A stretch of 18,606 nucleotides of DNA from contig JACVXV010000058.1 of the NCBI GenBank assembly GCA_015661205.1, positions 1 through 18,606 of the forward strand, given 5' to 3'. The notes below the pieces were generated by a model. That model was not told where the DNA came from. It ran no database searches and saw only the letters and a list, made by a program, of their open reading frames with translations. The stretch's first letter is position 1. Every line of letters starts with the position of its first letter. Of this stretch, positions 83-17,804 are shown one piece after another. Made by a program: the position numbers and the translations under genes. Source of the DNA: Candidatus Brocadiaceae bacterium (GTDB taxonomy: Bacteria > Planctomycetota > Brocadiia > Brocadiales > Brocadiaceae).

Positions 83-1321
83 TCAGGATATCTGAACTTC
101 CACATCCCAGTTTAAATAATGGTTGCCGGGGACAATAATGCAACGTTGCGCAGACAATCTGAACTGTTTAACCATCTCTTTAAAAAATAGGTGCACCTGC
201 TCGTATTCTTGAGGCGTTCCCTTGTTGGTTAAATCACCCGATATGACCAGGTAGTCCAGTCGCTTATAGCCCAACCCCTCCTTTTCATCGGTTAAATCGC
301 TGATCAGCGGCTGCAATCTCACTGCCGGGTTGTCAGATTCACTGAAGTGCAGGTCGCTTAAATGCAAGATGCGCACAGGGGGGTGCTGTGTCTGCACCTC
401 CAACCTGCGCACCCATTCCCTGACGTCGTCATATGCCACCTTACCGCGTGTTGGGTCGAACAAAATCAGGGCAAGCGTCGTTTCCGGCAGAAAAAGCTGG
501 TTCACCAGCCGGTACTCATCCTGCCCGCCTAAATCCCTGAGAGATATCTCGCGCACCTCACCGGAGGGAGCAACCGCCTCAGGGTCTAACCGTTCGGACA
601 ATATCTTCCAGGTGCGCATCCCGTGCGTAGTCATCTGTTCTTCATAATCGCCCTTAGTCAGGCGAAGTGCCAGACATGACTTCCCGACGTTACTTTCTCC
701 CACTAACACGACCTTGGCACTTGTGTAACAGACAGGTACGGCAAACAGACCGTGACTCTCAACAGAGACGGTAGAAAGACCACTAATGGACGCGCCGACC
801 TCAGCTTTTATAATTAAGACGTCCGGCTTTCCAAGTTTTGTTGCTCCCAACGATACTTCAACAAACGGCTGTGCCATAAACCGGATTGCAACAAGATAGT
901 GTGGGGGCGGTATCTTGTTATGGGATTGCAACTCAGCGCCAGTTTCGGTATACCACACCTTGACGGTGCCGCCCACAGAACCAGAGGCAATCATGCGACT
1001 ATCGTATGAGAAGGATACCGACTGAACCGTGTCTCCATGACCTTCGAGCGTGCGCAAGAGTTTGCCCGTGTTTGCATCCCACACCCTGACGGTCTTGTCA
1101 TCAGAACCCGATGCAATCATGCAACCATCTGGGGAGAAGGCAACGGAATGGAAAGTGTCAGACGGTATATGTGCAGCAACGATACCCAGGTATGCGGTTG
1201 CAGGTGGGTGATGGATTTTATTTTGCTCATTTTGTGAACAAATCCTTTTAAAAAAGAGCAGCGGATTATGAATTCGGCTTAAGGTAACTATAAAATACCG
1301 CTCATAATTGCTTTTTACCAC
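83..1321 (-). CDS. Mosaic ORF: WD40 repeats, partial Roc/Ras-like GTPase (G1-G3 only) and N-terminal half of a calcineurin-like metallophosphoesterase; possible gene remnant or chimera
   Basis: Two clear WD40 repeats (SVAFSPDGCMIASGSDDKTVRVWD; SVSFSYDSRMIASGSVGGTVKVWY, about nt 947-1159). P-loop GESNVGKS (nt 677-700) and DLGGQDEY (G3), but no NKxD/SAK. Then metallophosphoesterase motifs LHLSDLHF (DxH), ISGDL (GD) and PGNHY (GNH-). The ORF opens with GTG and a non-protein-like 50-aa leader. It ends at TGA 83-85 straight after motif III. Confidence 0.45.
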   Translation of the reverse strand: MVKSNYERYFIVTLSRIHNPLLFFKRICSQNEQNKIHHPPATAYLGIVAAHIPSDTFHSVAFSPDGCMIASGSDDKTVRVWDANTGKLLRTLEGHGDTVQSVSFSYDSRMIASGSVGGTVKVWYTETGAELQSHNKIPPPHYLVAIRFMAQPFVEVSLGATKLGKPDVLIIKAEVGASISGLSTVSVESHGLFAVPVCYTSAKVVLVGESNVGKSCLALRLTKGDYEEQMTTHGMRTWKILSERLDPEAVAPSGEVREISLRDLGGQDEYRLVNQLFLPETTLALILFDPTRGKVAYDDVREWVRRLEVQTQHPPVRILHLSDLHFSESDNPAVRLQPLISDLTDEKEGLGYKRLDYLVISGDLTNKGTPQEYEQVHLFFKEMVKQFRLSAQRCIIVPGNHYLNWDVEVQIS

Positions 1322-6965: not shown

Positions 6966-7433
6966 TCACTGACATGAAACAAATGTGACAGTACCACTAC
7001 CATAGCCAGACTCGACTCCTGTATCGAATGTTTCATGGACTATTTTTTGCTCTGTTCCATTAAGTGTAGCCGCATCTAATATTACATATATGTGTCCAGT
7101 GCTCATAAAATCTACGGTATCGCCTCTAGTGGAAACGAGTGTCATCAGGATGCTATCTTTCCCCATTTCTCTATTCATTTCTGCGCTGCCCATAACCGAG
7201 GAGACACCTCCATCAGTCCTCATAAATCTGCCATTACAGAGATAATGGTTTTCCCCCATATTGGTGATTCTCAGTGTCCGCACGCCAGCTAAGGAACCAT
7301 CACCACGATATACGTTCCAGCATCTCGTTCCTTTATGGCGCGGCCATGGTACTGAGGCCCAACTACTTGCAATGAAAGATAAGCTTATTAGACAAACCAA
7401 AAAAATAAAGCTGCAAAGACGGATAATCTTCAT
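6966..7433 (-). CDS. Secreted hypothetical protein (signal peptide, beta-rich, 3 Cys)
   Basis: Start moved to the internal ATG at 7433 (MKIIRLCSFIFLVCLISLSFIASSWA/SVPW), which is preceded by AAAGGAGAGG. It has a classical n-h-c signal peptide with an SWA cleavage context. I recognise no family. Confidence 0.6.
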   Translation of the reverse strand: MKIIRLCSFIFLVCLISLSFIASSWASVPWPRHKGTRCWNVYRGDGSLAGVRTLRITNMGENHYLCNGRFMRTDGGVSSVMGSAEMNREMGKDSILMTLVSTRGDTVDFMSTGHIYVILDAATLNGTEQKIVHETFDTGVESGYGSGTVTFVSCQ

Positions 7434-7509
7434 CTGAACCTCTCCTTTCTGAAATGATTTAATCATACAGATTAGCGGTGATAAAAGAACGAAACAATTT
7501 CAGACTGTC

Positions 7510-8040
7510 TCAACATAGCTCTCGCAATTTGATAAAAACTTTATCTATCAACTCAAACTTCTCATCAAAATCATAATATCCAATATCGCTTCGACCATGA
7601 CAGTGGACAGTAACGGTTTCTGTAAAAGGATTGACGCATACCACACGCTTTACGCCTATCGACAAATAATCTTGCACCTTGTCGTTGATTTTTCTAACCG
7701 TTTCATCTTCTGAGATTATTTCAACCACCAAGTCAGGCGGTATTTCAAGCATACCCACTGGTTTTTTAGGAGATGTTTTTTTGCTTATATAAACAACGTC
7801 TGCCGCCCTTAGTCTAAATGGCTTTTTTCTTATTACAACGCCAACTTCTCCAACTGCAACATAGCCCTCTGCCCCAAGATGTTTTCTCAATATCTCATAA
7901 AAAACACCCTCAAGATTACCGTGTCTGAATCCTGCAGGAGTCATGGGTACCATCTCCTCATCGATAATTTCATAATTACCATCAGGCAAAGAATTCACGT
8001 CACTATACGTATATACCTTTTTGTCTAATAAGGCTTTCAT
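7510..8040 (-). CDS. Uma2-family (DUF820) putative restriction-endonuclease-like protein, paralog 1
   Basis: 176 aa from the ATG at 8040 (MKALLDKKVYTY...). NYEIIDEEMVPMTP...H..., RAADVVYISK and IPPDLVVEIISEDE...K..DYLSIGVKRVVCVNP fit the Uma2 PD-(D/E)xK-like layout. It is the same length as the neighbouring paralog. Confidence 0.75.
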   Translation of the reverse strand: MKALLDKKVYTYSDVNSLPDGNYEIIDEEMVPMTPAGFRHGNLEGVFYEILRKHLGAEGYVAVGEVGVVIRKKPFRLRAADVVYISKKTSPKKPVGMLEIPPDLVVEIISEDETVRKINDKVQDYLSIGVKRVVCVNPFTETVTVHCHGRSDIGYYDFDEKFELIDKVFIKLRELC

Positions 8041-8080
8041 GTTGGTAATCCCTGTTCCGGTAACAATCAATCATTCAGTT

Positions 8081-8611
8081 TCAACACAACTCTCGCAATG
8101 TAACAAAAACGTTATCAATCAACTCAAACCTTTCATCAAAGTCATAATACCCGATATCGCTTCTACCTTGACAATGAACGGTAACAGTTTCTGCAAATGG
8201 ATTGATGCATACCACTCGTTTTACGCCTATCGATAAATAGTCCTGCACCTTATTGTTGATTTTTCCAGCCGTCTCATCTTCGGATATTATTTCAACCACC
8301 AAGTCAGGTGGTATTTCAAGCATACCAACAGGTTCACGAGGAGACATCTCTTTACTTACATAGACTACGTCAGCCGCCCTTAGCCTGAAAGGCTTTTTTC
8401 GTATTACAATACCTACTTCTCCAACAGCAACGTGACCTTTCGAACTAAGGTTCTTTCCCAATATTTCTGCAATTACGTATTCAAGTTTTCCATGCCTGAA
8501 CCCTGACGGTGTCATAGCCACCATTTCCCCATCAATTACTTCATAATTACCCTCAGGTAGAGAATTCACGTCGCTATACGTATATACCTTTTTATCTAAT
8601 AAGACGTTCAT
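8081..8611 (-). CDS. Uma2-family (DUF820) putative restriction-endonuclease-like protein, paralog 2
   Basis: 176 aa, about 81 percent identical (about 33 substitutions, no indels by eye) to paralog 1. It lies 40 bp upstream of paralog 1 on the same strand. Confidence 0.75.
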   Translation of the reverse strand: MNVLLDKKVYTYSDVNSLPEGNYEVIDGEMVAMTPSGFRHGKLEYVIAEILGKNLSSKGHVAVGEVGIVIRKKPFRLRAADVVYVSKEMSPREPVGMLEIPPDLVVEIISEDETAGKINNKVQDYLSIGVKRVVCINPFAETVTVHCQGRSDIGYYDFDERFELIDNVFVTLRELC

Positions 8612-8692: not shown

Positions 8693-10153
8693 TTAAGCGA
8701 TAGCAGCCGCCATAGCCGGCTTTTCAACAGTTACCGTGCTTGACTTATAACAGTCTTTATAGTAATCGCCCGAATCATACAACTCTTTCAAGTTCAGCAA
8801 CACCTGTTCAAAAACCTGTTTCCAGTCTGAACCTACCCTGAATGCAAACATGGAATTTCTTGGATTTTTCGTGGTATTGATAGAGTTCCTGAAGCGGGTT
8901 CTTAAGTTGTTGTTTGCGTAAATGTTGTCATAAACGTATTGCATACCCTCGATGAAATCTTCCAGTTTCATGTCCACGAAACGATGAACCACGTGTGCCG
9001 TATCGTAATATTGCCAATCATCCGGATAGTTCTTTCTGAAAATCCTCTTTTCAGAGTCCAATCTTGCGTAAAGCTGTGTTTTAGGGAAGGGGCAATTGAT
9101 ACCGAAGGTAAGGATATCAATATTGTTTTGTAGAATGAACTCCGTCATCCGCTTAAAGGAGTCCTTGCCGTCGCCGTCTGCGCCAAACACCACAGAACCC
9201 CAAACCACCAAGCCTGCGTCATGAATCTTTTGGATACAATCAAAATAACTATCCGTTCCCAACTTGAGGTTTACCCGCTTGTTCATCTTCTCCAAAACCG
9301 CTTCATTGGTAGACTCGATACCGATAAGCATGCCGAAACATCCGCTCTTTGCCATGTAATTCAACGTTTCCGCGTCCTGGGATATGTTTAAAGCAGTAAA
9401 TCCCAACCAATCCTTATGGATACCACGGTCTATCATGCCTTTGAAAAGATTACGCGCCCTTTCATTCGAATTCTTTCCATGTCCGTAAAAATTATCCTCA
9501 GCCAGCATCAAACCCTTGTAATCAGTTGCAGCCATTTCGTCAAGGACGTCCTCGAAGGGTCTCTCCCTGAATTTTCTGCCCTGGAAAGTAGGCACGCTGC
9601 AGAAGTCGCAATAGTTGGGGCATCCCTTCGTCGTTACGATGGAAGAAAACTTATAATCGTATTTCTTCTTCATAAGTTCGCGGTTTGGATACACCTTTTT
9701 CATAAGGCTAAGAGGGGGTAGGCCACCCTGATATATCTTTTTCAGTTTTCCCGCTTCAAAGTCCTTTATTACCTGTGGCCACAATTCTTCCGCTTCGCCC
9801 ACAAAAACGGCGTCGGCATAATTGGCAGCTTCTTCAGGCATAACAGAGGCGTGTATACCGCCCATAACAACGGGCATGCCTTTTTTCCTGCACGCAGCGG
9901 CTATTTTATATGCCCTTGGAGATTGGTAGGTAACAGCCGTAATGCAGACGAGGTCTACGTTCTTAAACGTAAGTTCGCCTTTATCATCAATAGCCAATTC
10001 AATATTTTCGTCTATAAGATCGAATTCCCATTCACCTGGAGTAAGAGCGGAAATATAGGCAAGGTTCAAAGGCATTTGAACGATCACCGTAATACTTTCC
10101 TCGCCATGTCTGCCAGGCATATGTGGATTAATTAACATCATTTTTCTTTTCAT
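8693..10153 (-). CDS. B12-binding-domain radical SAM enzyme (class B-like)
   Basis: CPNYCDFC (CX3CX2C) at nt 9599-9622. The N-terminal 150 aa have the Rossmann-like B12-binding-domain pattern (MLINP..., VDLVCITAVTYQSPRAYKIAAACRKKGMPVVMGGIHAS). I prefer the ATG at 10153, with GGAGGT 9 nt upstream, over the TTG at 10171. Confidence 0.85.
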   Translation of the reverse strand: MKRKMMLINPHMPGRHGEESITVIVQMPLNLAYISALTPGEWEFDLIDENIELAIDDKGELTFKNVDLVCITAVTYQSPRAYKIAAACRKKGMPVVMGGIHASVMPEEAANYADAVFVGEAEELWPQVIKDFEAGKLKKIYQGGLPPLSLMKKVYPNRELMKKKYDYKFSSIVTTKGCPNYCDFCSVPTFQGRKFRERPFEDVLDEMAATDYKGLMLAEDNFYGHGKNSNERARNLFKGMIDRGIHKDWLGFTALNISQDAETLNYMAKSGCFGMLIGIESTNEAVLEKMNKRVNLKLGTDSYFDCIQKIHDAGLVVWGSVVFGADGDGKDSFKRMTEFILQNNIDILTFGINCPFPKTQLYARLDSEKRIFRKNYPDDWQYYDTAHVVHRFVDMKLEDFIEGMQYVYDNIYANNNLRTRFRNSINTTKNPRNSMFAFRVGSDWKQVFEQVLLNLKELYDSGDYYKDCYKSSTVTVEKPAMAAAIA

Positions 10154-10161
10154 ACGATTAT

Positions 10162-11616
10162 TTACCTCCAATTCTCCATAATTAAATTAGCAACACCCCA
10201 ACCGGAAGAAACTACGGCACAAATTCCCGGGCCTGGTCTAGTCCAGTGTCCAGTCAAATACAGGTTGTCGATCGGCGTTTTTGGGGGTAATCTGTTTCCC
10301 CATATCTGATCCACCGTGACCGCCCAGCCATACGCGGCTCCATGGGTATTTGACGTATAACGCTCCAGGGTTTTCGGTGTGGCAGATTCCTTTACTTCTA
10401 TATACTTCCTTAAATCAGGAACAAAGGCCTCTAAGCGATTTACCGTGTTTTCCGTCAGGGTTTCTTTGAAAGACGGCCAATCGGTAACGTCCTGACACGA
10501 TTCCTCTTTCAAGGAAACAACTACGGAAATAATGTGCTTCTCCGAAGGCGCAAGGGTTGGGCAAATCCTTGTTGGCACGGACACATAGAGCCAATCACCA
10601 TCCGCATAACCGCTATCAGTTGACGTATGGTAAAACCCTCTCTTCAGGTTACTTAAGTCAACACCCTTGCCGACGCCCAAATACAAAAGAAAAAAAGAAC
10701 AACTTTCTTTCATTGACTTGATTTTATCGGTAAAAGGCACATCTGCTTTCCCTTTTAACAGCTCAAAAAAGGTTTGCCTTGCGTCGATATTTGAGACAAC
10801 CAAGCCTGAATGTATCTCTTTACCGTCATGTAGCTTAACGCTTTTTGCCATATTACCGTCAAAAAGTATTTCAATGGCTTTCGATGATAACATAACGTGT
10901 CCGCCGAAATCAATAAATTTCTTAAAAATCGCATTGGCAAACTCTTGCGTACCACCGGCAGGGAAAAATGCCCCGTCTTTAAGATAATTTATCATCATCT
11001 GGCACACGCCAATGGCAGAAGCCTTAGCAGGGGGGAGACCTATGTAACCGCACTGTCCGCCGAGTACCATTTTGAGTTCGTCATTGGTAAAAAAAGCGTT
11101 CAACACGTCCGCGTAGGTCTGGTCTTTATATTTGTCGATAAGCAAGCTCTTCTCATTATTGAAGGTGGCGCGGTAGAGCTTCGTAAACTCCTGGAAGAAT
11201 GCCTTGATGTTGTTTGCTTCAGCGGGATATCGCTGTTGTAATCGCGAAATGTATTCGTCCAAATATGCCGGGATTTCTATGGTGAAATAGGGGAAGATTA
11301 GGTGGTCCATAGGGTCGAGGGGATAAAATTCCATCTCAATCCCCAACGACTTCAAACACCTGCCGACGATGCCCCATTTCCCACAACCCCCGATGTGATG
11401 CACCGCCGCATCGAAGTTAAATCCCTTCCTTTTAAACGACGTGCAATAACCGCCGGGGATAAAATGTTGTTCTACAATGAGTATCTTTTTCCCGCTTTTT
11501 GCCAGAAACGCAGCACAAATAAGACCTGCGATACCGGCGCCAATAACAATCGCGTCATAACAGGGATACAGTTCACTCCTGCTTGTGGATTGTATAGCTC
11601 GTGCGGAAGGCGTCAT
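10162..11616 (-). CDS. Phytoene-desaturase (CrtI/CrtD)-family FAD-dependent oxidoreductase
   Basis: YDAIVIGAGIAGLICAAFLAKSGKKILIVEQHFIPGGYCTSF dinucleotide fold. C-terminal LYLTGHWTRPGPGICAVVSSGWGVA is typical of the family. I prefer the ATG at 11616 (4 nt after the upstream stop), because the longer listed ORF overlaps the preceding gene by about 100 nt. Confidence 0.85.
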   Translation of the reverse strand: MTPSARAIQSTSRSELYPCYDAIVIGAGIAGLICAAFLAKSGKKILIVEQHFIPGGYCTSFKRKGFNFDAAVHHIGGCGKWGIVGRCLKSLGIEMEFYPLDPMDHLIFPYFTIEIPAYLDEYISRLQQRYPAEANNIKAFFQEFTKLYRATFNNEKSLLIDKYKDQTYADVLNAFFTNDELKMVLGGQCGYIGLPPAKASAIGVCQMMINYLKDGAFFPAGGTQEFANAIFKKFIDFGGHVMLSSKAIEILFDGNMAKSVKLHDGKEIHSGLVVSNIDARQTFFELLKGKADVPFTDKIKSMKESCSFFLLYLGVGKGVDLSNLKRGFYHTSTDSGYADGDWLYVSVPTRICPTLAPSEKHIISVVVSLKEESCQDVTDWPSFKETLTENTVNRLEAFVPDLRKYIEVKESATPKTLERYTSNTHGAAYGWAVTVDQIWGNRLPPKTPIDNLYLTGHWTRPGPGICAVVSSGWGVANLIMENWR

Positions 11617-11620
11617 GAAA

Positions 11621-12862
11621 TTAAGGTTTGTATTTGGAGATGATGAGTGACGAACTATTACCGATTCGAGACGCGGTATTAATGAGGACGTTCTTAACCG
11701 GTACGGCCCTGCAGGTGTTAGGCACACAGTCTAAATCACATTCCGTGTCATGTTCCTGGTAATTGATGGTGGGGTGAACGGTGTGTGTCTTAATCGACAT
11801 TAATGAGGCTACCGTTTGCAGCGCACCCGATGCATCCAAACATTCACCGACCATGGATTTAATGGCCGGCGTAGGAATAAGGTTTGCCTTCATACCAAAG
11901 ACCTCTTTTATGGCATGTGTTTCCAATGCATCGCCGTAAACGCCTGAGTACGCGTTTGCAGAGATGCAAGAGATGTCTTGAATTGTCAATCCGGCGCTGT
12001 TAATGGCGTCCAACATAGCCTTCCTGACACCATCAGTCTGGTAATCTTTGCTGACCGCTATTTTCGGTTCAAAGGCAGTTCCATAACCCTTGACTTCGGC
12101 ATAAATATGGGCATTCCTCTTGAGGGCGTCTTCCAACGTTTCCAGGATCACCAACGCAGCCGCCTCTCCGAGAACCATCCCATTTCGCCTTTTATCGAAA
12201 GGAGCGCTTATTTCCAGTGTGCCCGACTTGCTTCCCGCCAATATTGTAGCGCTGTGAGAACCCCAGAATATGTCGTGCGTTAACCCATGCACGCCGCCTG
12301 CAACTATAGCCTTAACGCGTCCCATGCGGAGAAAGTCAGAGGCATAGATGATGGCGTCTACGCTACTCGTAACTCCGTTAGAAATGGTTGTACTAAGACC
12401 CGTTGCATTACAAAAAATGGATGCACGACTCGCTGGGGCATTTAACACGGTGTTGGGAAAATCCATCGGATTAACATAGTTAGGGCCTTCTTGCAACGAC
12501 TGGAAATCAAAGGAGCTAATACTGTCAATACTTCCATACGTCGAACCGACAACGATGCCTAATTCATCACTACTGTACGTGGTTTTCTCAATGTTTGCGT
12601 CCTTGATTGCAAGGGTTGTTGCAGATGATACAAGGAGGGAAGTCCTGTCTATATGGCGGATACCTTTCGGCCCTAAATAGACTTTAGCGTCAAAGTCAGT
12701 TATCTCTCCAGCTTGCTTGGAGTTAAACTTGCTCACGTCAAACAAGGTAATCGGTTTTATGCCCGATACCCCATTGGTCAGATTTTTCCAAAAGGTGTCT
12801 TTGTCAGACCCAAGAGGGGAGATGACTGAAACACCCGTTATAACAATTCTTGTATTTTCCAT
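11621..12862 (-). CDS. Ketosynthase paralog lacking the catalytic triad (chain-length-factor-like / KS-beta-like)
   Basis: Full KAS-II fold similarity to the adjacent FabF (IVITGVSVISPLG, PFDKRRNGMVLGE, IKSMVGE). At the positions aligned to Cys/His/His it reads Val (GTT at 12371-12373), Asn (ISANAYSG vs ISAHGTGT) and Glu (KSMVGECL vs KSMMGHTM). ATG at 12862, 17 nt after the fabF stop. Confidence 0.85.
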   Translation of the reverse strand: MENTRIVITGVSVISPLGSDKDTFWKNLTNGVSGIKPITLFDVSKFNSKQAGEITDFDAKVYLGPKGIRHIDRTSLLVSSATTLAIKDANIEKTTYSSDELGIVVGSTYGSIDSISSFDFQSLQEGPNYVNPMDFPNTVLNAPASRASIFCNATGLSTTISNGVTSSVDAIIYASDFLRMGRVKAIVAGGVHGLTHDIFWGSHSATILAGSKSGTLEISAPFDKRRNGMVLGEAAALVILETLEDALKRNAHIYAEVKGYGTAFEPKIAVSKDYQTDGVRKAMLDAINSAGLTIQDISCISANAYSGVYGDALETHAIKEVFGMKANLIPTPAIKSMVGECLDASGALQTVASLMSIKTHTVHPTINYQEHDTECDLDCVPNTCRAVPVKNVLINTASRIGNSSSLIISKYKP

Positions 12863-12879
12863 GTAAGAGTTCTCTTCTT

Positions 12880-14100
12880 TTATCCTGTAAACTTTTTTAC
12901 CACCAGACAACTATTGTTACCGCCAAACGCATGGGCATTATTAAGCGCAATGTTAACTCGTTGCTTTCTCATAACGTTTGGCACATAATCAAGGTCGCAT
13001 TCAGGGTCCGGTGTTTCATAATTAATCGTAGGTGGCATAATATCATTCTGAACAACCAAGGCGCAGGTTATCGCCTCTATTGCGCTTGCCGCCCCCATGG
13101 TATGTCCCATCATAGATTTGATAGAACTGATTGCAAGATGTGCAGGTTTTTCACCAAAAACCTTTTTGATTGATATCGTTTCTGCTTTATCGTTAGCGGG
13201 AGTACCCGTTCCATGAGCGCTAATGTACTGAACGTCTTCCGGTTTAAGGTTTGCATTTTTTAAAGCCTTTTTCATGGCAGAGACGACACCTTCACCATCC
13301 GGATGGGGGATAGTGATGTGGTATGCATCACAACTCAATCCGTAGCCGGTGATTTCTGCATAAATGTGTGCGCCTCTCTTCATTGCATGTTCAAGAGACT
13401 CTAAAAGAAGCATACCGGCGCCTTCGCCCACCATCATCCCCTTCCTGTTTTTGTCAAAAGGCTGGCAAATATCAGGGGCTATCGCGCCCAACCTGGCGAA
13501 ACCTGTATAGGCAACCTTTGAGAAGGGGTCTGAACCACCGGAAACCATCATGTCAACCCGACCAAACTTTATCAAATCGTATGCATATCCAATTGCATAA
13601 TTACCAGCAGCGCAAGCAGTTGGGATAATCGTATTGGGTCCTTTAAATCCGAATTCTATGGCAATGTTGGCCGGGATGTTGTTGCAGGGATGCATGAGAA
13701 AAAGGGCGGGATCAACCTTGTCCTCGCCTTCTTTATGGCGGACATAATTGACCTTCTCAAGGATTTGTATCTCACCGGCAGTTGTTCCGACGGAGACGCC
13801 GACCCGTTCCATGTTGTACTTACTCAGATCAATCCTGGCGTCCGTTAATGCAAGCTGGGTTGCGGCAATTGCAAACTGAGAACCTTTACCGATCTTCTTA
13901 AGAACGCCATTTTTCACGTAATCGGAATAGTTGAAGTTCTTGACCTCACAGCCTTTATGCACCTTATAGTCTGAAGTATCGATGCACGCTACTTTTTCAA
14001 CTCCCGATGTTCCTGCGATGAGGGCCTTCCAAAATGTATCCCTACCCGCGCCAATAGGAGTAATCATCCCTACACCCGTTATAACAACACGTTTATTCAT
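12880..14100 (-). CDS. fabF: 3-oxoacyl-ACP synthase II (FabF-type), catalytic triad intact
   Basis: 406 aa. [12 protein letters not shown] (Cys163), [16 protein letters not shown] (His296), [15 protein letters not shown] (His333). The ATG overlaps the fabZ stop as ATGA (14097-14100). Confidence 0.9.
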
Positions 14101-14546
14101 AATAAAGCACTTTTCTCTGCTATTCCAAAAGTTAAATTTGCCTTTGCAACTACCGTTTCACCTACCTTTGCCGTCGCCTGAACAATGGCGCCTTTCGATA
14201 CAATCTTTTCTACCAGGACTTCTATAAAGATCTGATCTCCAGGGAAAACCGGTTTGGTAAATCGCGCGCTACTTACAGAGGCCAACAAAAAAATCTTGTC
14301 CTGTTCGATAGTAGCAGTGAGGCTTTTCTTGAAAAGAATGATAGACGCCTGTGCCATCGCCTCAATAATCAAAACGCCGGGAAAGATTGCAAAATCAGGG
14401 AAATGGCCTACAAAGACAGGTTCATTCCCGGAGACGTTTTTTACACAAATAATCCTCTTGCCTTCCTCAAATTCAGTGACTTTATCGATAAACTGAAAAG
14501 GGTATTTTTGTGGCAGAAGATTTCGGATTTCTTCAAAAGATATCAT
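14097..14546 (-). CDS. fabZ: 3-hydroxyacyl-ACP dehydratase (FabZ-type hot-dog fold)
   Basis: 149 aa. [36 protein letters not shown] (catalytic His and Glu context). ATG at 14546. Confidence 0.9.
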
Positions 14547-14584: not shown

Positions 14585-14854
14585 TTAAGATGAGAGTTTT
14601 CCACTTTCCGCTAAGACGGATTTGGTTAAGCCTATGGTAGCGCTTAACGACGTAATGTCTATTAGCTTTTCTTCAGGTATCTGCACTTTAAACTTTTTCT
14701 CAATGAGAGCAAGGATTTCCAGTGCCAATAGAGAATCAATCTCCAAGTCTTTAAAGAAATTAGCCTCCCGCTTGTCCCATATTTCCTTTTCGTCCAACTC
14801 TGTAACCTCAGCAACGATAGCGGTTACACCTTTTTCAATCTCTTCAGCGTTCAA
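14585..14854 (-). CDS. Acyl carrier protein
   Basis: 89 aa. FFKDLEIDSLLALEILALIEKKF carries the DSL phosphopantetheine-serine motif. TTG start at 14854 with AAGGAGGA 5 nt upstream. Confidence 0.85.
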   Translation of the reverse strand: MNAEEIEKGVTAIVAEVTELDEKEIWDKREANFFKDLEIDSLLALEILALIEKKFKVQIPEEKLIDITSLSATIGLTKSVLAESGKLSS

Positions 14855-14938: not shown

Positions 14939-14995
14939 TATGGTCAGCACATGCTAGCAGAGATATTTTATATTGTCAATAATATTCTGACCATA
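14939..14995 (-). promoter_or_regulatory. Putative sigma70-type promoter of the ACP operon, bracketed by a 9-bp inverted repeat (candidate operator)
   Basis: The minus strand reads TATGGTCAG-aatatta-TTGACA-(17 nt)-TAGCAT-gtg-CTGACCATA. The -35 is at 14979-14974 and the -10 at 14956-14951. The perfect half-sites are 14939-14947 and 14987-14995. Confidence 0.4.
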
Positions 14996-15108: not shown

Positions 15109-15732
15109 TCATTTCCCTTTCTTTGTTGTCCGTCTTTCCTCTGTCGATACCCTACGCCTCATTTTGTTCAACGTATTCAACGCCTTGTACACCTGAGACT
15201 CTAACAAAGATTCGTATGACGACAATTCGCCAGCCAGACTCTTCCCTTCCATAACCTTCAACGCCTTTAATTGTTTTAGTTCCTTGTCGGATCTTTTTCT
15301 TGTTCTGAAAAACCCCTGCTCATATTCCTGCACATCTGAGCTGCATAGTTCAATAATCTGCTTTTCAAACTTCAAGCATCGCTTCAATCTCCACGTGCTT
15401 GACGCGATTCTGTCTACAAGAATTGCCTCGACGTCATTCGTCGGTCTCAGCGCGTTCCTAAGACTTGTCCTTATTTCATCAAAGGCACAACCGTCTTCTC
15501 CGTCAATAACCACCTCGCTACTAAACAGGTTTTGCAAGGCCTTTGACTCAGTTACGATTGGCAGCGGAACTGCCTGGCTTTCCTGTTTACATTCCTGTGC
15601 AGTCTCCTTCGGCTGTTTTTCAACGGCATGATGTGGTGTTACAATGGTATCAATCAATTTGTCCACACCTTCTCTGCCTGAAGATTCCTTGTTTCCACTA
15701 CGTAGTACATTTTTTTTTAATATTGCAGCCAT
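15109..15732 (-). CDS. Hypothetical protein, charged/coiled-coil rich
   Basis: 207 aa. ATG at 15732 preceded by GAAAGGAAG. Lys/Glu-rich with predicted helical C-terminal half (LVDRIASSTWRLKRCLKFEKQIIEL...). I recognise no domain. Confidence 0.55.
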   Translation of the reverse strand: MAAILKKNVLRSGNKESSGREGVDKLIDTIVTPHHAVEKQPKETAQECKQESQAVPLPIVTESKALQNLFSSEVVIDGEDGCAFDEIRTSLRNALRPTNDVEAILVDRIASSTWRLKRCLKFEKQIIELCSSDVQEYEQGFFRTRKRSDKELKQLKALKVMEGKSLAGELSSYESLLESQVYKALNTLNKMRRRVSTEERRTTKKGK

Positions 15733-16038: not shown

Positions 16039-16086
16039 CTGTGGTTTCAGCAGTTTTTTCCATAATAACCTGTGGTTTCAGCAGTT
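16039..16086 (+). repeat. Two exact 17-nt direct repeats CTGTGGTTTCAGCAGTT in the queE leader
   Basis: Copies at 16039-16055 and 16070-16086 (31-nt period). The second ends at the queE ATG (16087). The first is preceded by AAT, completing a reverse-oriented iteron AATCTGTGG. Confidence 0.75.
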
Positions 16087-16722
16087 ATGAAGATTACCGA
16101 AATATTTAAAAGCATCGAAGGTGAAACGTCCTACGTGGGACTCCCCTGCTCCTTTATTCGCGTAACGGGCTGCAACCTGCGCTGTAGCTATTGCGACACC
16201 ACCTACGCTTACGAAGGCGGACGCGAAATGCCGATCCCTTCAATCCTTGAGGAAGTGAGAGGATTCAAAACGAAACTGGTCTGCATCACCGGCGGGGAAC
16301 CCTTGATAAATAAGGAAACGCCGTTATTGGCCGAAGAACTGCTCAAAAAACGTTATACCGTGCTGGTAGAAACAAACGGCGCTTGTGATATCCGCGCGTT
16401 GCCAAAGGCGGCTATTAAGATTATGGATTTAAAGTGTCCCGACAGCAACGCAAGCTCCCACATGCACTGGCAAAACATCGCGTATCTGACGCCTCAAGAT
16501 GAGGTAAAATTTGTCTTGTCTTCCCGAAATGACTATGAATGGGCAAAGGTTATAATACGGCAACATCGTTTAACTGACATTGCCAGGGTGCTAATAGGAA
16601 CGGCCTCCGGCTCAATCCCGCCCAAAACCGTTGTCCAGTGGCTCCTGGAAGACAACCTCAACGTGCGGTTTCAACTCCAAATACACAAATATATATGGGA
16701 TCAGCAGGCCAGGGGCGTTTGA
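16087..16722 (+). CDS. queE: 7-carboxy-7-deazaguanine synthase (radical SAM QueE)
   Basis: MKITEIFKSIEGETSYVGLPCSFIRVTGCNLRCSYCDTTYAY is the QueE N-terminal signature with the CX3CX2C cluster. I prefer the ATG at 16087 over the GTG at 16072. Confidence 0.9.
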   Translation: MKITEIFKSIEGETSYVGLPCSFIRVTGCNLRCSYCDTTYAYEGGREMPIPSILEEVRGFKTKLVCITGGEPLINKETPLLAEELLKKRYTVLVETNGACDIRALPKAAIKIMDLKCPDSNASSHMHWQNIAYLTPQDEVKFVLSSRNDYEWAKVIIRQHRLTDIARVLIGTASGSIPPKTVVQWLLEDNLNVRFQLQIHKYIWDQQARGV

Positions 16723-17132: not shown

Positions 17133-17804
17133 ATGAATGAACTTGCCATTATATTAGTCAGCGGCGGCATGGATAGTTGTGTGACTGCCGCCCTTGCAAG
17201 CGAGCGTTATCAGCCCGCGCTCCTGCACGTCAATTACGGCCAGCGCACGGAATCAAGAGAACTTAAGGCGTTCCGGGACATTGCCGCATATTATCACATA
17301 CCCGAAGACAGATTACTCATATCAAACATCGACCACCTCAGCAAAATTGGTGGTTCGAGTTTAACGGACGCCAGGATAGACGTCCAGCACGCACAACCAT
17401 CCAGTACAGAAATCCCAACCACGTATGTGCCATTCAGAAACACCCTTCTCTTAACCATTGCCGTTTCCTGGGGCGAGGTTATCGGGGCGTGCAAGGTATT
17501 TATCGGCGCAGTTGAGCAAGATAGCCCCGGTTATCCCGACTGCAAACCCGCTTATTATGAGGTATTCAACAGACTCATTAAGGCCGGCACAAAACCGGAC
17601 ACCTGCATTGAGGTGGAAACACCCCTTATTGATAAGTCAAAGACCGAGATCGTAAAACTGGGCATTGCGCTAAAAGCCCCCCTTCATCTGAGCTGGTCTT
17701 GTTACAAAAATTCCGACAAAGCCTGCGGCTTCTGCCAAAGCTGTTTCTTACGGTTAAAGGCCTTTCAGGAGGCCGGTGTGAAGGATCCTGTGATATACGA
17801 GTAG
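17133..17804 (+). CDS. queC: 7-cyano-7-deazaguanine synthase (QueC)
   Basis: 223 aa. PP-loop ILVSGGMDSC, LHVNYGQR, and a C-terminal zinc-binding Cys cluster (SWSCY...CGFCQSC). Confidence 0.9.
   Translation: MNELAIILVSGGMDSCVTAALASERYQPALLHVNYGQRTESRELKAFRDIAAYYHIPEDRLLISNIDHLSKIGGSSLTDARIDVQHAQPSSTEIPTTYVPFRNTLLLTIAVSWGEVIGACKVFIGAVEQDSPGYPDCKPAYYEVFNRLIKAGTKPDTCIEVETPLIDKSKTEIVKLGIALKAPLHLSWSCYKNSDKACGFCQSCFLRLKAFQEAGVKDPVIYE

Follow-up and report, generated by a model that had tools for sequence, protein, structure and literature searches.

A catalytically dead FabF-like subunit and its probable active ketosynthase partner in the candidate ladderane cluster of an uncultured Brocadiaceae bacterium

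We analysed an 18 606 nt stretch of DNA from a Candidatus Brocadiaceae bacterium (contig JACVXV010000058.1 of assembly GCA_015661205.1, here called the window) and focus on one minus-strand gene, at 11621–12862, which encodes a FabF-like protein that has lost the entire catalytic triad of a ketosynthase (KS). With a confidence of roughly 0.9, we identify the product of this gene (hereafter the dead subunit) as amxFabFmut, a non-catalytic descendant of FabF whose obligate heterodimer partner is amxFabF2, the active KS encoded by the gene immediately upstream. The surrounding operon is kuste3603–3608 'Cluster I', the candidate ladderane cluster of anammox bacteria, which has long been suspected of ladderane-lipid synthesis (Rattray et al., 2009, PMC2649909; Granatino et al., 2026, bioRxiv 10.64898/2026.05.19.726425). 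Ladderane lipids are among the strangest of natural products, and how cells make them is unsolved; the pair of KS and dead KS belongs to the small part of the candidate cluster that has been characterised experimentally. Both the dead active site and the heterodimer were already known, the former having been in print for Kuste3606 since the work of Rattray et al. (2009) and the latter from the preprint of May 2026, in which ortholog pairs from K. stuttgartiensis and B. fulgida were studied (PDB 9s5h and 9s5i). What we add is the loss of the triad in 116 of 117 orthologs, a ratio of nonsynonymous to synonymous substitution rates (dN/dS) of ∼0.04 and a dead-triad clade that reaches non-anammox bacteria. 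The window itself contributes one more, slightly divergent, Brocadiaceae ortholog; its value is confirmatory and it raises no new question.

A ketosynthase fold without a catalytic triad

The open reading frame (ORF) of the dead subunit begins with an ATG at 12862, has 413 codons and ends with a stop that the coordinates include, and its product matches both halves of the ketoacyl-synthase (thiolase) fold in Pfam (PF00109, 5e-37; PF02801, 1.5e-19). A protein of 413 aa in the public collection (P0001) is identical to it in sequence. The ATG at 12862 is favoured as the start because the orthologs and PDB chain 9s5h_C begin there, and a longer version from a TTG at 12910, proposed by the ORF finder, was rejected on ortholog N-termini and gene spacing. 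BLASTP aligns the protein with the adjacent KS at 34 % identity over 409 residues (E = 8e-81). It falls below the cutoffs of two curated NCBIfam FabF models (TIGR03150, 314.1 versus 493.75; NF005589, 304.2 versus 387); the partner KS clears the NF005589 subfamily model (457.8 versus 387).

In order to locate the active site, we aligned E. coli K-12 FabF (from NC_000913.3) with both KS proteins of the window in a three-way MAFFT alignment, for which mature E. coli numbering is used. The columns of E. coli Cys163, His303 and His340 hold Cys163, His296 and His333 in the upstream KS, and Val164, Asn303 and Glu340 in the dead subunit. A HMMER alignment of the dead subunit to B. subtilis FabF (4ls5/4ls6) returned the identical three columns. 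A first-pass annotation, made from the letters alone, had read the same three replacements beside an intact neighbour and had proposed an alignment against FabF as a check; both alignments bear it out, in that neither places a Cys, His and His at the active site of the dead subunit. Its further remark that scaffold motifs are retained also holds, with PFDKRRNGMVLGE and IKSM both present. Additional positions are altered in the dead subunit, where Tyr stands in place of Thr305, Gly of Thr307, Gln of Glu349 and Arg399 of the gate residue Phe400, whilst Lys335 is retained; in the partner KS the equivalents of Thr305 and Thr307 are the phosphopantetheine-binding threonines. The resulting list is the same as that tabulated for Kuste3606 (Val, Asn, Tyr, Gly, Lys, Glu, Gln and Arg; Rattray et al., 2009, Table 2).

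Loss of the triad is general among the relatives of this protein. Across 117 full-length orthologs, the three positions read VNE in 44, TCE in 35, VCE in 28, INE in six and ENE in three, so that Cys/His/His is missing in 116, the lone exception being a chimeric sequence; at genome loci of a deeper Brocadiales group, the positions read END. All 117 orthologs share Phe135, Val139 and Lys335, Glu340 occurs in 116 (all except the chimera) and Gln349 likewise in 116 of the 117. Moreover, the helix-loop-helix segment at residues 105–145 is largely invariant in the same set and ranks among the most conserved parts of the protein. Altogether 23 % of the columns of the dead subunit are invariant, and its conservation extends over three or more anammox lineages of family rank. 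Compared with its two closest metagenome-assembled genomes (MAGs), it has dN/dS values of 0.038 and 0.043, against 0.019–0.032 for the active KS and ∼0.14 for the desaturase-like gene. Strong purifying selection thus acts on the dead subunit, and the gene is not in decay.

The exceptional sequence, P0054 (ENA, on a contig of 2.5 kb), is 410 aa long and reads 'VHH' at the triad positions. Its N-terminal half, with the Val, is that of the dead subunit and its C-terminal half, with both His, that of the active KS, and the two meet within a HIYAE motif common to both. An assembly chimera is the probable explanation, with a recombinant as a possible one; a role as an intermediate form was rejected, given that the halves of P0054 derive from the dead subunit and the KS, respectively.

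An AlphaFold2 monomer model of the dead subunit, built on a 31-sequence alignment, reached a mean pLDDT (predicted local distance difference test) of 66.8 and a pTM (predicted template-modelling score) of 0.74. Residues 109–165 and 194–231, which correspond to the dimer interface and the former active-site helix, fell below a pLDDT of 50; the first of these stretches overlaps a region that is disordered in a published homodimer crystal. The alignment was shallow and its sequences closely related, which may account for the low confidence. For an independent structure-based alignment, this predicted model is too poor in the interface and in the active-site helix. In Foldseek the best match of this mediocre model was B. 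subtilis FabF (TM-score of 0.74).

Pairing with the active ketosynthase

The gene at 12880–14100 (minus strand) encodes a KS of 406 aa that carries Cys163/His296/His333, the gate residue Phe392 and phosphopantetheine-binding Thr298 and Thr300. The two window proteins match two different chains of the same PDB entries, 9s5h and 9s5i: the dead subunit aligns over its full length with 9s5h_C (745.7 bits, E = 1e-223) and the active KS with 9s5h_B (831.6 bits). From the residues named in the preprint (catalytic, gate, phosphopantetheine-binding, Mg-site and tunnel), 18 of 19 stand at the corresponding window positions. The lone mismatch lies in a stretch that is identical in sequence to the B. fulgida chain and is for that reason a numbering issue. 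Phe135, Thr138 and Val139, which line the tunnel, are all present in the dead subunit of the window.

For these orthologs a substantial body of experiment exists (Granatino et al., 2026). Kuenenia amxFabF2 and amxFabFmut are inactive if made separately and co-elute on Ni-NTA when co-expressed, and the co-expressed pair decarboxylates malonyl-amxACP (ACP, acyl carrier protein), yielding acetyl-ACP and acetoacetyl-amxACP. Structures of the B. fulgida proteins were obtained at 2.6 Å for the heterodimer and at 2.1 Å for its complex with C8-amxACP. One tunnel, with Phe135, Thr138 and Val139 from the dead subunit in its wall, runs through the Cys-His-His site of amxFabF2; a second one, which extends to the mutated site, was judged non-catalytic and contained a bound molecule of polyethylene glycol (PEG). 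Mutations of Val139 and Phe135 in the dead subunit shift the chain-length preference in crosslinking assays, in which the heterodimer favours C6–C8 probes, and amxACP touches both subunits. The authors call amxFabFmut the first protein resembling a chain length factor (CLF) in a fatty-acid-type pathway.

By analogy, the window pair would be expected to behave like its crystallised orthologs. The helix-loop-helix of the dead subunit, with Phe135, Thr138 and Val139, would complete the wall of the partner's acyl tunnel, and the protein would supply about half of the docking surface for amxACP. It would stabilise and activate the partner KS and set its chain-length preference in the manner of a CLF, with transacylation, malonyl decarboxylation and Claisen condensation taking place solely at Cys163/His296/His333 of the partner. 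The heterodimer would thereby decarboxylate malonyl-amxACP and form acetoacetyl-amxACP, with the preference for short acyl chains (C6–C8) seen in crosslinking. From gene distribution and expression we infer, in addition, that the physiological product of the pair feeds ladderane-lipid synthesis together with the downstream desaturase-like and B12 radical S-adenosylmethionine (SAM) enzymes.

The first-pass annotation had proposed an obligate KS/CLF-like heterodimer in which the dead protein serves the tunnel or chain length. For the orthologs, co-elution, activity in the pair only and the 2.6 Å structure support the first part of this proposal, and the shifted preferences of the Val139 and Phe135 mutants, with the sole triad on the partner, support the second (Granatino et al., 2026). 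Thus, a reading of the raw sequence alone had reached a conclusion otherwise established by crystallography and enzymology. Its view that decarboxylative priming is unlikely applies to the dead subunit's own site, which has neither Gln nor the two histidines, and should not be extended to the heterodimer as a whole, which does prime in vitro (Granatino et al., 2026). That the dead subunit is not a Gln-type decarboxylase is a reasonable conclusion, because both histidines are absent as well.

Several observations weigh against this assignment. The heterodimer claim rests on orthologs, to which the window proteins are ∼78–83 % (dead) and 85–89 % (active) identical. In the preprint, elongation past acetoacetyl-ACP was not seen and the chain-length data come from a non-physiological crosslinking reaction, and as such 'chain length factor' is an analogy and not fully proven. 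The amxFabFmut of S. brodae crystallised alone as a homodimer with its interface motif disordered, and no experiment ties Cluster I to ladderanes, whose synthesis has not been reconstituted (Granatino et al., 2026). Furthermore, a charge count over the interface segments (helix-loop-helix 110–140 and helix 196–206) fails to reproduce the positive (mut) and negative (FabF2) three-dimensional electrostatics of the preprint: the helix-loop-helix has a net charge of −4 in the dead subunit and −2 in the KS, and the helix one of −1 and +2, respectively. Such a linear count is too crude for this comparison.

One alternative is that the dead-triad protein is an enzyme after all and catalyses some other reaction, in line with the proposal that its altered pocket recruits a pre-made ladderane moiety, made outside fatty-acid synthesis, into that pathway (Rattray et al., 2009). 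We regard this as very unlikely. Pocket residues are indeed conserved (Lys335 in all 117 orthologs, Glu340 and Gln349 in 116 each, the Glu also in most non-anammox relatives), and the second tunnel, leading to the mutated site, did hold PEG (Granatino et al., 2026). In disagreement with such an activity, however, no nucleophile takes the place of the Cys, where Val, Ile, Thr or Glu is found depending on lineage, and both histidines are gone. This variation by family (V/I, T or E) is hard to square with one conserved chemistry, and orthologs made alone have no detectable activity and do not react with mechanism-based probes (Granatino et al., 2026).

It is also highly improbable that the protein works as a standalone homodimer, binding ACP or lipid non-catalytically and associating with the KS only incidentally. 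The S. brodae homodimer crystal is in keeping with that idea, as is the non-anammox locus L046, where a dead-triad KS sits beside a ketoreductase and FabZ with no active KS adjacent. Against this, the interface helix-loop-helix is disordered in that very crystal, co-expressed orthologs co-purify and are active in the pair only (Granatino et al., 2026), and the gene directly follows that of the active KS in 36 of 36 complete anammox loci. Finally, decay of a functionless fabF duplicate, to which the loss of all three catalytic residues and the somewhat faster evolution relative to the partner (83 % versus 89 % identity to Brocadia) might point, is effectively refuted by the selection and conservation data (an intact 413-aa frame, dN/dS of ∼0.04 and 23 % invariant columns in a protein that three or more anammox lineages of family rank retain) and by the expression of orthologs (Granatino et al., 2026), and a pseudogene was likewise rejected on the dN/dS value. 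Assignment to the amxFabF2/amxFabFmut heterodimer is accordingly the reading that we retain.

The candidate ladderane cluster and related loci

Transcribed from the minus strand, the operon has the order ACP, FabZ, active KS, dead KS, phytoene-desaturase-like flavoprotein and B12 radical-SAM enzyme. Its first gene (14585–14854) encodes an amxACP-like protein of 89 aa (PF00550) with Ser41 within a DSL motif, and its second (14097–14546) an amxFabZ-like 3-hydroxyacyl-ACP dehydratase of 149 aa (PF07977), which overlaps the KS start by 4 nt and exceeds the cutoff of the FabZ model NF000582 (149 bits versus 113); both assignments are also based on synteny. A 17-nt spacer (12863–12879) separates the KS TAA from the ATG of the dead subunit and contains a purine-rich, ribosome-binding-site-like AAGAAGAGAACTCTTAC; read directly, its purine-rich stretch is AAGAAGAG. 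Such spacing is consistent with coupled expression of the two KS proteins. Downstream lies a phytoene-desaturase-like FAD (flavin adenine dinucleotide) oxidoreductase (PDH) of the Kuste3607 type (10162–11616), which is CrtI/amine-oxidase-like, was assigned by synteny and scores 169 bits against the CrtI family TIGR02734, below the cutoff. Its start is likely the ATG at 11616, 4 nt past the stop of the dead subunit; the GTG at 11727 given by the ORF finder, which would produce a 107-nt overlap with the dead-subunit gene, was rejected on gene spacing and ortholog N-termini. The last gene of the cluster (8693–10171) encodes a B12-binding radical-SAM enzyme of the Kuste3608 type (PF02310 and PF04055). 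It matches the NCBIfam model rSAM_ladder_B12 (TIGR04072) weakly, with 94 bits versus a cutoff of 360, and belongs to a subfamily other than that of TIGR04072. The best σ70-like promoter match is found at 14951–14979 on the minus strand, ∼100 nt 5′ of the ACP start (TTGACA, a 17-nt spacer and TAGCAT, with a TG). As a consensus match it is a possible operon promoter, and promoter-like matches in the region as a whole showed no enrichment over shuffles.

Fetched loci were searched with the six window cluster proteins in order to assess synteny. The order ACP–FabZ–KS–dead KS–PDH–B12 radical SAM was recovered in 36 Brocadiales loci, spanning Brocadia, Jettenia, Kuenenia, Scalinduaceae and the deeper Brocadiales clade, and in all 36 the dead-KS gene comes directly after that of the active KS; other loci were short, truncated or frameshifted and gave no conflicting order. 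The text of the preprint places the dead-subunit gene 'just upstream' of amxFabF2 (Granatino et al., 2026), whereas both in the window and at the complete Brocadiales loci transcription runs through the KS gene first, and the dead-subunit gene is the downstream one. In a scan of relatives limited to one genome per species, the closest dead subunits were those of two uncultured Brocadiaceae MAGs (97 % identity), followed by Brocadia (∼83 %), Jettenia and Kuenenia (78–80 %), Scalinduaceae (67 %) and the deeper Brocadiales clade (59–61 %), all of them anammox bacteria or lineages related to these. The label 'fatty-acid-type operon', which the first-pass annotation had used, has to be replaced: with its phytoene-desaturase-like and B12 radical-SAM enzymes, the operon is the candidate ladderane Cluster I. 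Separately, the FabZ-like protein (14097–14546) scores 108.9 bits, with a cutoff of 140, against NCBIfam AmcE, the cispentacin 'cyclizing decarboxylase', and both KS proteins (11621–14100) match AmcF below cutoff, a resemblance to a type II polyketide synthase (PKS)-like system that builds a carbocycle.

Relatives at a greater distance, with 40–48 % identity to the dead subunit, were found in Omnitrophota, other Planctomycetia, an acidobacterial MAG and unclassified MAGs. These also lack the triad: F, Y or G replaces the Cys, and the second His has mostly given way to Glu. In a neighbour-joining tree (our own implementation, with Kimura distances and 200 bootstraps), all triad-less KS proteins, anammox and non-anammox, formed one clade apart from the active partners in 200 of 200 replicates. 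A single dead-triad clade is provisional, as dead paralogs evolve fast and neighbour-joining trees of such sequences readily suffer from long-branch attraction. The non-anammox dead-triad loci come from Omnitrophota, Planctomycetia, Acidobacteria and unclassified MAGs (L047, 3379–10040; L061, 96–6387; and L050, L052, L054, L058, L062, L053 and L055–57), and several comprise a dead KS, ACP, FabZ, active KS, ketoreductase, alpha/beta hydrolase and CrtI-like flavoprotein, with no B12 radical-SAM gene. At L046 (8001–10446), in a Planctomycetales MAG, a dead KS reading Phe/Asn/Glu accompanies a FabG-like reductase and FabZ beside riboflavin-biosynthesis genes, and no active KS is adjacent to it. 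As a genome-mining study has reported 'ladderane-like' clusters in organisms other than anammox bacteria (PMC9902471) and Kuste3606 had been grouped with other triad-less paralogs by Rattray et al. (2009), these findings are an extension and not a discovery.

The distribution suggests that the KS/dead-KS module predates its anammox use. A more far-reaching version, which we put forward as a speculation that is rather more doubtful than probable, is that KS/CLF-like pair, FabZ, ACP and desaturase make up an older, widespread module for short or unsaturated chains, which anammox bacteria converted to ladderane synthesis chiefly via the B12 radical-SAM enzyme. If true, the radical-SAM step would be the cyclobutane-forming innovation, and the non-anammox systems, possibly more tractable, would offer a means to learn the product of the shared module.

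The remaining window genes lie around this cluster. Just upstream of it, at 15109–15732 (minus strand), is a charged protein of 207 aa with no Pfam match. Transcribed divergently from the cluster are a small radical-SAM protein (16072–16722, plus strand), QueE-like by size and context and matched in Pfam by Radical_SAM only, and QueC (17133–17804, plus strand). Directly downstream of the B12 radical-SAM gene and outside the conserved cluster are tandem paralogous genes of the Uma2 family (PF05685, putative restriction endonuclease; 7510–8070 and 8081–8611, minus strand). A protein of 166 aa with a signal-peptide-like N-terminus and no Pfam match is encoded at 6966–7466 (minus strand). A HigA-like helix-turn-helix antitoxin (1524–1829) and a HigB-like RelE-family toxin (1826–2215) share a 4-nt overlap on the minus strand, and a single ORF at 83–1321 (minus strand) combines WD40 repeats, a Roc/Ras-type GTPase domain and the start of a calcineurin-like phosphoesterase domain. 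The GC content of the first kilobase of the window is 0.50, compared with ∼0.42 elsewhere.

Comparison with known systems

With canonical FabF, the dead subunit shares the thiolase fold, its length and both Pfam KS domains, and B. subtilis FabF is the best structural match of its model. It differs in that the triad, the two phosphopantetheine-binding threonines and the gate phenylalanine have all been replaced, and in that FabF forms a homodimer, where by analogy with the orthologs a heterodimer would be formed here.

A KS-fold protein without the catalytic Cys beside an active KS is what marks a CLF, and the dead subunit is such a protein. Like the actinorhodin CLF ActI-ORF2 (PDB 1tqy_B), it is a non-catalytic paralog encoded beside a KS, with a heterodimer in which residues of the partner limit the tunnel. 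In the CLFs of aromatic type II PKSs, a conserved Gln replaces the catalytic Cys, whereas Val164 is found in the window and V, I, T or E, never Q, in the orthologs. Similarity is also low, with 132.7 bits to 1tqy_B versus 209–255 to FabFs (∼209 for E. coli and 254.6 for B. subtilis), and the substrate is a reduced acyl chain and not a poly-β-ketone. Membership of the aromatic type II PKS CLF (KS-β) family was thus rejected on the absence of Gln and the low similarity. The dead-subunit lineage seems to have branched off from FabF-like ancestors independently; the protein is CLF-like in function and stands outside the actinobacterial KS-β family.

Highly reducing type II PKS-like systems also have KS/CLF pairs, among them the ishigamide pair Iga11/Iga12 (PDB 6kxd-f) and the aryl-polyene pair ApeO/ApeC, in which an active KS works with an adjacent inactive partner that shapes the tunnel, alongside a discrete ACP, a ketoreductase and dehydratases, to make reduced or polyene chains. 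The active KS of the window scores 334 bits to Iga11, near its FabF scores. In contrast, the dead subunit reaches 160.5 bits to the only ishigamide chain among the 60 matches listed, versus 254.6 to B. subtilis FabF, and the B12 radical-SAM and CrtI-like enzymes of the window cluster are not part of those systems.

The closest counterpart is the amxFabF2/amxFabFmut complex 'amxFabFhet' (Kuste3605/Kuste3606 and Broful02171/02170), which belongs to the same family and the same operon, with dead subunits ∼80–83 % identical. The V/N/E substitutions, Phe135/Thr138/Val139, the Cys-His-His partner and the neighbouring amxACP, amxFabZ, PDH and B12 radical-SAM genes are all shared, and the difference is one of species only, the window representing an uncultured Brocadiaceae lineage.

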